From Camelus ferus (lineage: Eukaryota), in assembly GCF_009834535.1 (NCBI RefSeq), contig NC_045701.1, forward strand, positions 32,612,001 to 32,676,000: a DNA stretch of 64,000 nt, written 5' to 3'. A model generated the notes under the pieces. The model did not search any database. It worked only from the letters and a program-made list of their open reading frames with translations, and was not told the origin of the DNA. Made by a program: the position numbers and the translations under genes. Numbering within the stretch: position 1 is the stretch's first letter; every line of letters starts with the position of its first letter. Below, one piece after another: positions 48,689-55,268 of this stretch.

Positions 48689-49753
48689 ATGTCGCTCTGC
48701 TACCGTCCCCCAGGGAATGAGACGCTGCTGAGCTCGAAGACTTCGAGGGCCACAGGCGCTGCCTTCCTGCTGCTGGCGGCGCTTCTGGGGCTGCCGGGCA
48801 ATGGCTTCGTCGTGTGGAGCTTGGCGGGCTGGCGGCCGGCCGGGGGGCGACCGCTGGCGGCCACGCTCGTGCTGCATCTGGCGCTGGCCGACGGCTTGGT
48901 GCTGCTGCTCACGCCGCTCTTCGTGGCCTTCCTGACCGGGAAGGCCTGGCCGCTGGGCCAGGCGGGCTGCAAGGCGGTGTACTACGTGTGCACACTCAGC
49001 ATGTACGCCAGCGTGCTGCTCACCAGCCTGCTCAGCCTGCAGCGCTGCCTCGCCGTCACCCGCCCCTTCCTGGCACCCCGGCTGCGCAGCCCCGCCCTGG
49101 CCCGCCGCCTGCTGCTGGCCGTCTGGCTGGCAGCTCTGGTGCTCGCCAGCCCGGTCGCTGTCTACCGCCACCTCTGGGCGGACCGTGTGTGCCAGCTGTG
49201 CCACCCATCGCGCGCCCACGCCGCCGCCCACCTGAGCCTGGAGACCCTGACCGCCTTCGTGTTTCCCTTTGGGCTGGTGCTCGGCTGCTACGGCGTGACG
49301 CTGGCGCGGCTGCGGGGCGCCCGCTGGGGCGCCAGGCGGCACAGGACGCAGGTGGGCCGGCTGGTGGGCGCCATCGTGCTGGCCTTCGGCTTGCTCTGGG
49401 CCCCCTACCACGCCGTCAACGTCCTGCAGGTGCTCGCCGCTCTGGCTCCGCCCGAAGGGGCCTTGGCGAGGCTCGGCGGGGCGGGCCAGGCGGCGCGAGC
49501 TGGAACTACGGCTTTGGCCTTCTTCAGCTCCAGCGTCAACCCAGTGCTCTACGTCTTCACCGCCCGCGATTTGCTGCCCCGCGCGGGTCCCCGCTTCCTC
49601 ATGCGGCTCTTTGAGGGCTCTGGAGAGGCCCGAGGGGGCGGCCTCTCTAGAGAGGGGACCATGGAGCTGCGAGCTACCACTCGGCTCAAAGTGGCGGGTC
49701 AGGGCCGCGGCAATGGAGACCCCGGGGGCGGGGCGAAGGACAGTCAGGGATGA
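48689..49753 (+). CDS. LTB4R2: Leukotriene B4 / 12-HHT receptor 2 (BLT2), intronless CDS, 354 aa
   Basis: Starts MSLCYRPPGNETLLS; 7TM GPCR with GLPGN, LALAD, QRC (DRY position), WAPYH and NPVLY motifs. The CDS is a CpG island. Confidence 0.97.
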   Translation: MSLCYRPPGNETLLSSKTSRATGAAFLLLAALLGLPGNGFVVWSLAGWRPAGGRPLAATLVLHLALADGLVLLLTPLFVAFLTGKAWPLGQAGCKAVYYVCTLSMYASVLLTSLLSLQRCLAVTRPFLAPRLRSPALARRLLLAVWLAALVLASPVAVYRHLWADRVCQLCHPSRAHAAAHLSLETLTAFVFPFGLVLGCYGVTLARLRGARWGARRHRTQVGRLVGAIVLAFGLLWAPYHAVNVLQVLAALAPPEGALARLGGAGQAARAGTTALAFFSSSVNPVLYVFTARDLLPRAGPRFLMRLFEGSGEARGGGLSREGTMELRATTRLKVAGQGRGNGDPGGGAKDSQG

Positions 49754-51823: not shown

Positions 51824-51917
51824 TTTTCTTTTTTTTCAGTGGAGGTACTAGGGATTGAAACCAGGACCTTGTGCATGCTGAGCACGCACTCTACCACTAA
51901 GCTATACTCTGTCCCCC
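51824..51917 (-). mobile_element. vic-1-like SINE, short form
   Basis: tRNA-like head, T-rich tail on the + strand, TSD GA(A/G)ATTGTC at 51815-51823 and 51918-51926. Confidence 0.85.
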
Positions 51918-52007
51918 GAGATTGTCATTCTGTGTGATAACAGAGAGACCCTTTGGGCTTTGGCATCTGCCAAGTAGAAGGGAGATGGACCTAGAATGGA
52001 ACCAGTC

Positions 52008-52887
52008 TTTTTTTTTTTTTTTTTTTTTTTGAGTAAAGGTAGATTTATTTAGAGAGATACATACTACATAGAGTGTAGGCTGTTTCAAAAGCCAAGAGAA
52101 AGGCCATGAGGTGAGGGGGTTGGGTGCTCAGGTTAAAGTAAAAGTAGACACATACTCCATAAACAGAGTGAGGGCCATCTCTGAAAACAAAGAAGCGAGA
52201 GAGGCTGCGGGGCACAGCAGTGTTGCCAGTTTTTAATGGGCTCGATAGCTTCACATGCCAACAAGTGGGAGGACCATTCCTACTACCCTGGGAAAGGGGC
52301 TGGGATTCCCAGGAACTGGGCCACCACTCATTCTTTGACCTTTTATGGGCAGCCTGGAAGCTGTCATGGCGCCCGTGGGAGTGTCGTTTACCATTGCTAA
52401 TATTACAATGAGCATATAATGAAGCTCAAGGTCTACTGGAAGTCAAATCTCCCACCATCTTGATCCTCAAGACCTACTGGGAGTTGAGTCTTCCACCATT
52501 TTGGTGTTAACTGCTGTGTCATTCCTTGAATGGCTGTGCCCTGACCCCTTCCCTCCTGTCTCATTTTCCCCTCAGAGATTTTACTCCTATAATCTTACGG
52601 GTGTGCAGAGGGGTGACAGTCTGTCTTCCAAAACTACTTCCGGGCTGAGTAGGGGCATTGACCTTGCCTGGAAGGGAGTAAAAATCTCTTAATGCCTAAT
52701 CTAGGGGCCCCAGGGGCAGGACAGCCTTTTGTTTTTGCCTCAGATGGTGGTATGGCCTGGAACCCTCGCATAACCATCATGTGGGGCTGTTGTAACCCAC
52801 TGTTTCTATAGCAATGAATCTTCTTAAAGATGAAGCACCTTTGTAACAGCAGGTCAACTGTCTATGATGACAAAAGAATTAAAAGGC
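52008..52887 (-). mobile_element. L1-retroposed ERV 3' end: env tail, PPT, U3-R and poly(A)
   Basis: TSD ATGGAACCAGTC at 51996-52007 and 52888-52899; 23-nt poly(T) at 52008-52030; minus-strand AATAAA at 52044-52049; PPT-like AGGGGAAAA followed by TGAGACAGG (LTR start at 52563). Confidence 0.8.
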
Positions 52888-54197
52888 ATGGAACCAGTCC
52901 TTTTAAGTGAGGGAAAGGATGGGGGGGTTCTGGAAGAGGGCCCTCCCCATGAAACCCCAGTCATGGCCTGAATCCAAGCCAAAAACAGACTGCTGTCCTC
53001 TATAAATCATGATGCCACCTAACCCAAACCCAGAACCTAGCTACAGTGTCAATCCGCACTTCTATTAATCAAAAGTCTGCATTGTTCACAGAAGACAGAG
53101 AGATAGCCGACATTCTGGCCTCTTAATCTGAGCCCATTTCCCCCCTCCCAGCTTCCTTCCCCGCTTCTTCTGTATGACACAATTTATTCTTCTGTTCAAT
53201 TCTCCAGTCTAGACCTGCATCTGAGGCCACAACCCAGCCTACTCACTCCCCTCACCCATCTCTCCTCTCTTACTGCCCCTTCCTGGGCTCTCCTCTTCTC
53301 ATCCCACCCCTGAGGAGCCCTCCTCCCCACTGGGCTCTCCTGGGACACAAAGACTATCCCCTCCTCCTAATGAAGGGAGGTGGGTAGGAGTTTCAGCCCC
53401 ACCCTCAGGAAGACGTGTCTTCTCCCTCCGGTACTCTGTGGTACTTCCTCTCTGGCTGACTTAGCTGACAGTACCCAGATCCCAGGCCAGGCCCCTGGCT
53501 CCGACAGATCTGAGGATAGGCTACACCGCTGTACCTTCACCCTGGGATTGGCACCTACTTTGAACCAGTGTCCCGAAAAGCCTGTATGTAAGTATCCTGG
53601 GAGTAGAGGAGGTGGGGGTGGGGTGGGCAGGGTGCAGCCATAAGAGAAGGTCCAAAGGAATTTCCAAAGAAAGGCTGACTAGTGGTAAAAGGACTTGGGA
53701 GGATTTATTCTTGTCTCCTAGCCATGAAATCCTCCCCCATCCCTCTTATTCTTGGTGGACCCTGGACATCTCTGGGGCGAGTGGGTAGGTGATTGGAGGA
53801 AGTCAGTGGGACTGAGGGGGCTAAGGGCCTGGCAGGAGAGAAAAGGAGCTAACCTTTTGAGGGATGCAGCATTGGTAAGGAAAGCCCCTCATTTGGTTCC
53901 TAAGGGAAGGAGGCTGAAAGGATCTAGAAATACTGCTTCCTCTGTTGCTGTTTATTTTGTAACTGAGTCTGTGGGCAGGAAGGGGCCCTGTGGCCCAGTT
54001 AGGAAATTAATCTTTCTACTCAGATCCCCTTGAGACAGGTCAGTTGGCAGTGAGGAGGGCAGTAAACTGCAGAAGTGCATCTGATGCTGCTGATCTTGGA
54101 GAAAGACTAAACAGGCTAGGGGGTGTCCAGGCTGTCAGGAAACCCTTGATCCCTTACCCTCATGTACATGTCCACCCTCACTCTCCAGGTCTTTGCA

Positions 54198-55268
54198 ATG
54201 GCCACAAACATTACATCTTCTGCAGCACCCTCCTCGCCAGGTGTCATGTTCATCTCTCTACTGGCTATCATCTTACTGTCGGTGGCCCTGGCTGTGGGGC
54301 TTCCTGGCAACAGCTTTGTGGTGTGGAGCATCCTGGTAAAGATGCGAAAACGCTCTGTCACTGCCCTGCTGGTGCTGAACCTGGCTCTGGCCGATTTGGC
54401 CGTATTGCTTACTGGCCCCTTTTTCCTCCATTTCCTGACCCAAGGCACCTGGACTTTTGGACAGGCTGGCTGCCGCCTGCTCCACTATGTCTGCGGAGTC
54501 AGCATGTATGCCAGCGTCCTGCTTATAACGGCCATGAGTCTGGACCGCTCACTGGCGGTGGCCCTCCCCTTTGTGTCCCAGAAGCTTCGCACCAAGGCGG
54601 TTGCCTGGAGGGTGCTGGTAGGCATCTGGGTGGTATCTGTTCTGCTGGCCACGCCCGTCATCGCGTACCGCCAGGTGAACCTGGGACCCAACAATAGGAG
54701 CCTTATATGCTTTCCGAAGTACCCCAGCGAAAGACACAGGGCCTTCCATCTGTTCTTCGAGGTCTTCACGGGCTTCCTGTTGCCCTTCCTGGCCATAGTG
54801 GCCAGCTACTCCGACATCGGGCGGCGGCTGCAGGCCCGGCGCTTCCGCCGCAGCCGCCGCACCGGCCGCCTGGTGGTGCTCATCATCCTGGCCTTCGCCG
54901 CCTTCTGGCTGCCCTACCACGTGGTGAACCTGGCCCAGGCGGTCCGCGCGGTGGCGGGCAAGGTCGTGGAGGACGGGCCCGTGGGGCGGCGGCTGCACCT
55001 GGCCCGCCAAGTGCTCATCACGCTGGCTTTCCTGAGCAGCAGCGTGAACCCCGTGCTGTACGCGTGCGCCGGCGGCGGCCTGCTGCGCTCGGCCGGCGTG
55101 GGCTTCGTCGCCAAGCTGTTGGAGGGCACCGGCTCCGAGATGTCCAGCACCCGCCGCGGGGCCACACTGGTCCAGACGGTGAAGGGCGCCCCCACCCGTC
55201 CCGAGCCAGGCTCCGTGGAGAGCCTCACTGTCTCCACCAACCCTCTGGAGGGAAGCGAACCCAACTAG
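54198..55268 (+). CDS. LTB4R: Leukotriene B4 receptor 1 (BLT1), single coding exon, 356 aa
   Basis: Acceptor ctctccag|G at 54188/54189, then the ATG. Starts MATNITSSAAPSS; motifs GLPGN, LALAD, DRS, FWLPYH and NPVLY; C-tail LLEGTGSE. Confidence 0.97.
   Translation: MATNITSSAAPSSPGVMFISLLAIILLSVALAVGLPGNSFVVWSILVKMRKRSVTALLVLNLALADLAVLLTGPFFLHFLTQGTWTFGQAGCRLLHYVCGVSMYASVLLITAMSLDRSLAVALPFVSQKLRTKAVAWRVLVGIWVVSVLLATPVIAYRQVNLGPNNRSLICFPKYPSERHRAFHLFFEVFTGFLLPFLAIVASYSDIGRRLQARRFRRSRRTGRLVVLIILAFAAFWLPYHVVNLAQAVRAVAGKVVEDGPVGRRLHLARQVLITLAFLSSSVNPVLYACAGGGLLRSAGVGFVAKLLEGTGSEMSSTRRGATLVQTVKGAPTRPEPGSVESLTVSTNPLEGSEPN

Follow-up and report, generated by a model that had tools for sequence, protein, structure and literature searches.

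A processed ERV1 copy and its R-only relatives in the wild camel genome

The closest described system to the element reported here is HERV-W. Its processed pseudogenes start with R-U5, end with U3-R and a poly(A) tail, and lie at TT/AAAA sites between long target-site duplications (TSDs), features also found in the camelid family described here (PMC5016936). In both cases the processed copies were made beside proviruses and solo LTRs, and in both a few copies lack an intron, which in HERV-W is the pre-gag one (PMC6995185). HERV-W has been called the only human endogenous retrovirus (ERV) group mobilised by L1, and the reviews consulted describe the determinants of this mobilisation as unknown (PMC5537654, PMC8554740). 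No processed copies were found in New World monkey ERV-W (PMC6995185), and the HERV-W set described in 2002 consists mostly of copies of 0–0.5 kb (PMC5016936). The camelid family belongs to another mammalian order and another ERV1 lineage, and the likeness to HERV-W is one of mode of action, not of membership. It also differs in that its commonest tailed product is R alone, and in that its intron-less form exists as two-LTR proviruses as well.

Other known systems share parts of this picture. The SINE-R portion of SVA originated from the env-U3-R part of HERV-K. Like the camelid copies, SVA ends in retroviral sequence with an AATAAA signal and a poly(A) tail, and is moved by L1 (PMC3287187). 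However, SVA is a composite element with propagating master copies, whereas the camelid family has neither an added head nor a single master. The U3 and U5 words of the family presumably resemble those of MER41-type LTRs. MER41_Vpa and the MER41-like LTRs of cetartiodactyls are likewise an ERV1 LTR family, with alpaca and wild camel rows in the supplement of PMC9435751, but the available part of that paper does not treat tailed copies. Promoter-proximal LTR polyadenylation in HIV-1 and foamy virus also involves a poly(A) signal in R that is silenced at the 5′ LTR by a splice donor (PMC3694450); that is an event at the RNA level, whereas the camelid family would hold its genomic fossils.

Our literature search returned no report of processed ERV copies in camelids or of R-only retrocopies, and tailed ERV copies are not mentioned in the available part of a camelid repeat survey (PMC8605555). 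A precedent for R-only copies may exist in Repbase reports or in the 2002 HERV-W set, since most of the latter is shorter than 0.5 kb. The copy at the present locus is of a known kind; what is new is the R-only majority among the tailed copies of its family, together with the intron-less proviruses.

Anatomy and insertion marks of the window copy

The window, by which we mean the whole 64-kb stretch of DNA analysed, contains a 5′-truncated, poly(A)-tailed ERV1 copy without U5 at 52031–52887 on the minus strand. It lies between two single-exon frames on the opposite strand (48689–49753 and 54162–55268), which we take to be the leukotriene receptor genes LTB4R2 and LTB4R, with CIDEB presumably further to the left; the end of the LTB4R2 frame is 2.2 kb from the element. 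A tRNA-like SINE, probably a camelid one, is found at 51845–51907 (minus strand), 90 nt past the tail. Its Rfam tRNA score of 28.1 bits is under the cut-off, and it has the very high contig depth of a high-copy repeat. The Rfam search gave nothing else adjoining the element. Read on the plus strand, which is that of LTB4R, the tail region (52008–52040) presents a T tract with AG behind it at 52033 and 52038. This might serve as a cryptic splice acceptor within the interval that corresponds to a 5′ intron of human LTB4R; no splice joint was seen at this acceptor among the reads mapped to the locus.

Read on the minus strand, the order is cactt, a 17-nt TSD, internal sequence, a purine tract, the LTR, 23 A and the second TSD copy. 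Every feature listed in the initial annotation (TSDs, polypurine tract, LTR, AATAAA, CA and poly(A)) is present in this reading. The 5′ TSD copy (52888–52904) is preceded by TT on the minus strand, giving the site TT/AAAA, while the last five bases of the copy behind the tail (51996–52012) are common to the A run. The two copies match at 16 of 17 positions, with one mismatch, and the pair is unique among the 2,523,780 17-nt windows spaced 870–909 nt in the whole 64-kb window. (The TSD is absent from the 20 largest repeat families listed for the window, and was tested directly instead.) At the 5′ junction, CCAT (52891–52888) is common to the TSD and the family sequence, a 4-nt microhomology of the kind usual in L1 truncations. 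In the DNA runs the right flank has zero depth and reads are cut at the tail; neither a joint across the element nor an empty site was seen.

The internal sequence amounts to 324 nt, reaching 52564. It consists of a 5′-truncated upstream exon (52797–52887), joined at 52796–52797 to the last internal exon (52574–52796), which was delimited by comparison with siblings and by a weak homologue as an env-tail remnant plus a 3′ untranslated stretch, and of the polypurine tract (52564–52573). The LTR opens with TGAGACAGG at 52563. Its U3, defined from the sequence and from siblings, is complete from the TG (52210–52563) and is followed by an R region of about 179 nt (52031–52209), with AATAAA at 52049–52044 and CA at 52031–52030. 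The CA is 13 nt past the AATAAA, slightly closer than the distance of about 15 nt first given, and the tail (52008–52030) begins at the A of this cleavage site. All of these parts lie on the minus strand.

One of the two observations that the initial annotation named as speaking against a processed copy was an LTR ending naturally at 52030, with the T run belonging to another element. That position is not the natural end, because the LTRs of siblings continue for about another 150 nt into U5. The 17-bp TSD, the TT/AAAA site, the 23 A and the missing U5, together with siblings that carry L1-type TSDs, agree with the processed, L1-type insertion originally proposed. The window copy is almost certainly the product of L1 target-primed reverse transcription of an ERV1 RNA. 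By itself this single copy is ordinary.

The family and its missing intron

The closest siblings in the same genome are 77–88% identical to the window copy (40 scored of 5357 candidates). A 7-kb sibling, L044, contains RVT_1, RNase_H, rve and MLVIN_C domains and a weak Gag_MA (Pfam), and its RT piece matches MMLV-type chains with an E value of 3e-29, compared to 3e-09 or worse for others. Judged from these sequences, the family is ERV1 and gammaretrovirus-like, since it has RT, RNase H, integrase and an MLV-type C-terminus, with an RT closest to that of MMLV.

At the point where the window copy ends, 23 of 29 sibling loci are A-rich and 6 continue into U5 (the query included 10 A, a small bias toward tailed copies). 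The check suggested at the outset, a search of the genome for siblings that have this poly(A) site, gave at least 142 exact matches to the end of R plus six A; the end of R plus the start of U5 gave at least 439, and the reversed control patterns 0. The first 70 U5-bearing copies in genome order comprise 65 solo LTRs, 2 copies with internal sequence upstream and 3 with R-U5-leader. Solo LTRs of the TG...CA type with a short, integrase-type TSD are present in the family: an exact 4-bp TSD flanks 26 of the 51 that were scored, and the remaining 25 had none under a crude script.

The tailed copies were sampled as the first 96 of the 142 matches in genome order (90 plus six long copies). TSDs of 9–22 nt flank 55 of the 90, TT/AAAA (11) and TT/AAGA (8) being their commonest insertion sites. 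The other 35 have no TSD at the score cut, and most of the short ones show a degenerate TSD. The TSD mismatch rate (18/404) is bounded by the one-mismatch rule and is not convertible to years. Two tailed siblings are 5′-inverted between their TSDs (L039, 7552–8990; L028, 1032–2173), as in L1 twin priming. Five long tailed siblings (L002, L015, L037, L043 and L044) have R as their first part and no U3 before it, and L093 and L102 likewise begin at R. Apart from short repeat-like matches, the tailed copies share no flanks, and they gave no 3′ transduction that would point to a source locus. In two further, rearranged loci, L032 (3207–3830 and 7626–9133) and L033 (5347–8470), inverted LTR or leader pieces adjoin a 3′ LTR.

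L1 trans-mobilisation holds for the family, since U5-bearing siblings show 4-bp TSDs while the poly(A) of at least 142 copies begins at the same base as that of the window copy. The original suggestion that the family spreads by this route needs to be narrowed, however: L1 copies are many, but most members were made by integrase, as the 65 solo LTRs among 70 U5-bearing copies show, and the L1-made copies look like dead ends.

Three siblings (L035, L036 and L039) carry an extra 382 nt at the point equivalent to 52797/52796, which starts with GT, contains a pyrimidine tract and ends with AG. Without this segment, which is carried by 27 candidates genome-wide, the junction in most other copies compared reads exactly as in the window. 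A second junction joins a leader donor to an acceptor about 10 nt upstream of the 5′ end of the window copy, exactly in L015 and one base off in L002. These two siblings (L015, 848–2361; L002, 876–2372), each between TSDs, are full processed copies of a 1.5-kb RNA that had been spliced twice and consisted of R-U5-leader plus the 3′ exons. We considered the possibility that the 382 nt were lost through a microhomology deletion, as GGT is found on both sides, but splicing is favoured because of the GT–AG ends, the pyrimidine tract and the second spliced junction.

The segment is also missing from two proviruses of about 6 kb with two LTRs, L040 (3066–9112) and L046 (3053–9070), which share two further deletions compared to L044 and whose LTR pairs diverge by 2.6% and 12.9%, respectively. 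It seems that RNA without the intron continued to replicate as a retrovirus does. Because the loss is found in these proviruses as well, it was probably inherited by the window copy and not produced by a new splicing event. An integrase-type copy of the unspliced form exists too: L117 bears the intron and runs on into U5.

The 382-nt segment encodes the stretch that precedes the env tail. The frame in L035 has one unnamed homologue (E 3.4e-05), the motif of which we take to be a gamma-type env tail. Neither the window peptide nor two frames from the intron-bearing sibling gave a Pfam env domain, a search for homologues among longer proteins came back empty, and the 17 intron-bearing loci contained no stop-free 60-residue frame with env motifs. 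The peptide first quoted as env-like can be accepted from LQQ onward; its first three residues do not belong to the env tail, because the frame holds only across the splice-like junction at 52797/52796.

R-only copies

The lengths of the 90 tailed copies are strongly peaked: 9 are shorter than 100 nt, 2 are 100–134 nt, 59 are 135–199 nt, 11 are 200–599 nt, 6 are 600–1489 nt and 3 are longer. With the six long copies added, the 135–199 nt class makes up 59 of 96. Measured from the conserved CATAAAA box, the TSD of these R-only copies stops at +27 to +32 in 27 of the 44 copies that could be measured. In 28 of 42 its end is no more than 1 nt from a GGCY start word, which is also where the five full-length processed copies begin. 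The R-only copies are whole R regions, from start site to poly(A) site, since their 5′ ends pile up at the start where the full-length processed copies begin.

The R regions fall into two subtypes that differ in a block of about 30 nt ahead of the poly(A) signal, present in one and absent from the other, and each subtype is represented among solo LTRs, long tailed copies and R-only copies. In a tree built from 105 R cores the R-only copies are scattered, with 32 changes compared to 34.4 ± 2.7 after shuffling. (Of 145 rows, 40 were dropped for an absent anchor or for length, and the R core was used since the CT tract inflates whole-R distances.) With both subtypes represented and no clustering on the tree, the R-only copies must have come from many sources rather than from a SINE master. 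A self-propagating, master-driven SINE was accordingly rejected: no promoter box is retained in the R-only copies, and on the tree they are interspersed with solo LTRs.

We propose the following sequence of events. A gamma-like provirus, probably already without the env-tail intron, would have been transcribed and polyadenylated at its 3′ LTR. The L1 endonuclease would then have nicked TTTT/AA, with the tail priming reverse transcription that stopped after about 860 nt. Retroviruses silence the LTR poly(A) site via a nearby splice donor (PMC3694450). The LTR of this family carries a promoter and a poly(A) signal about 180 nt apart, and LTRs with no splice donor behind them to silence the poly(A) site, namely solo LTRs and U3-R-poly(A) copies like that in the window, would yield capped, tailed RNAs of 150–180 nt. 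L1 would copy such a short R RNA whole, and the resulting R-only daughters, being without U3, would be dead ends.

We hold this explanation as a whole, an L1-inserted ERV1 RNA copy plus R-only copies from short capped LTR RNAs, to be quite probable. That most R-only copies derive from such short RNAs is a narrower claim, towards which the evidence leans. The furthest-reaching version is evenly balanced in our judgement: that a long-R LTR alone serves as an L1 source gene, that the R-only copies are SINE-like retroposons, that the family is the second heavily L1-mobilised ERV group after HERV-W and the first outside primates, and that the window copy is still firing.

The R-only copies might instead be "solo R" relics, left when the two R regions of an inserted full-length copy recombined, or when the L1 enzyme, while copying, jumped from the 3′ R to the 5′ R; the window copy would still be an L1 product. 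Such relics would have an identical structure, including the 5′ end, and the full-length processed copies from which they would form do exist (the same five long siblings; 3 of the 70 U5-bearing copies). The distances between R-only and long tailed copies equal those within each class. R-only cores are also slightly nearer to long tailed copies (0.127 and 0.082) than to solo LTRs (0.138 and 0.095), which would equally fit a younger source pool, and the R pairs of surviving full-length copies have diverged by 11–17%, as survivor bias predicts. However, most insertions would have had to be full length and then to collapse over only 150–180 nt of homology. Scaling the samples to the exact matches gives an estimated ~93 R-only against ~19 full-length 5′ ends, and present-day reads start at that same position and are confined to R. 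We regard such an origin as possible but doubtful, and continue to favour short LTR RNAs.

Start site, RNA reads and the meaning of the R-only copies

A TATA-like promoter box is located at 52230–52238 (minus strand), reading CATTAAAAA in the window copy and CATAAAAA in most siblings; the family box plus its next bases has 519 exact matches in the genome. The transcription start is placed at 52208–52209 on the same strand by the 5′ ends of R-only and full-length processed copies and by four RNA reads. The start had previously been sought near 52315, which these ends and reads contradict, the actual start being at about 52209 with its box at 52238. The CATAAAAG box that had been pointed out is present (52347–52340), but it is not the promoter box of the family.

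Twenty runs, from three organisms and one metagenome label, contain the stretch. In the single-cell RNA run X24, of which about 1% was sampled, 30 reads mapped to the locus. They reach a depth of about 4 with first mates on the plus strand, which in most libraries denotes minus-strand RNA, and cover R but not U3. Four of them carry about 31 unmatched letters beyond 52208, presumably the template-switch adapter that marks a capped 5′ end. Paralogues of 52090–52208 are 87–90% identical over most of the length, or 92% over 92 nt (best among 40 scored of 2248 candidates), and the 16-mer at 52208 is unique. Since the paralogues fall below the 95% cut and the 16-mer is unique, the four reads likely come from the window copy. 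They show where the RNA starts and not how long it is, because the genomic A run can prime oligo-dT. The U3 of the window copy likely still drives weak transcription from 52208.

Contig pieces identical to the window copy were recovered from organism A (315 nt), organism B (129 nt) and organism C (109 nt). As paralogues differ from it by 11–13.5%, the insertion is likely common to all three. Short deletion joints in the reads at the element were discounted, as they stem from short pieces of other family copies. Single-base differences at 52677 and 52763 in run X1, each also present in one X24 read, are likely alleles of organism A.

The initial annotation had further suggested that the LTR could act as an antisense promoter. 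The four reads starting at 52208 give this idea some substance, albeit a thin one, coming as they do from about 1% of one run. A co-opted promoter or enhancer for LTB4R2, LTB4R or CIDEB would be in keeping with the complete U3 and with these reads. In addition, TTC-N3-GAA at 52530 and TTC-N4-GAA at 52315 in U3 are candidate GAS-like words by sequence, MER41-like LTRs act as interferon-induced enhancers in cattle (PMC9435751), and the human locus uses several promoters around this interval (PMC3607986). However, GAS-like words are to be expected in any LTR, the promoter box of the window copy is altered, and AATAAA and the 23 A follow 160–180 nt downstream of the start. Moreover, X24 has no minus-strand depth from the tail to the SINE, and the LTB4R2 frame ends 2.2 kb away. 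Co-option of the window copy is therefore improbable.

The position of the start also bears on whether the R-only copies could be ordinary 5′ truncations, made when reverse transcription of long RNAs stalled at the CT-rich tract or at a hairpin. L1 truncation is common, a CT-rich tract does open R, and truncations elsewhere occur, as 11 of 90 tailed copies are shorter than 135 nt. Yet the R-only copies end just upstream of the tract, at the very base where full-length copies and adapter-marked reads start, and the R of the window copy folds no better than its shuffled versions (z −1.49), so stalling is a very improbable cause. As to the window copy itself, there is next to no chance that it is the remnant of an integrase-made provirus in which an unrelated A-rich insertion replaced U5: although most of the family was made by integrase, a single TSD pair encloses the whole element, and the same end point recurs in at least 142 copies. 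We thus return to an L1-inserted ERV1 RNA and short LTR RNAs as the preferred explanation.

For annotation, R-only pieces would pass for decayed LTR fragments and so distort copy counts and ages. Yet each represents an insertion of its own and records, to the base, the start and poly(A) sites of the LTR. If they are recombination relics after all, "solo R" would be an undescribed parallel of solo-LTR formation. If they come from short RNAs, the sufficient substrate for L1 shrinks to about 180 nt plus a tail. A second, independent ERV family copied by L1 makes the question of what determines the mobilisation of HERV-W testable.
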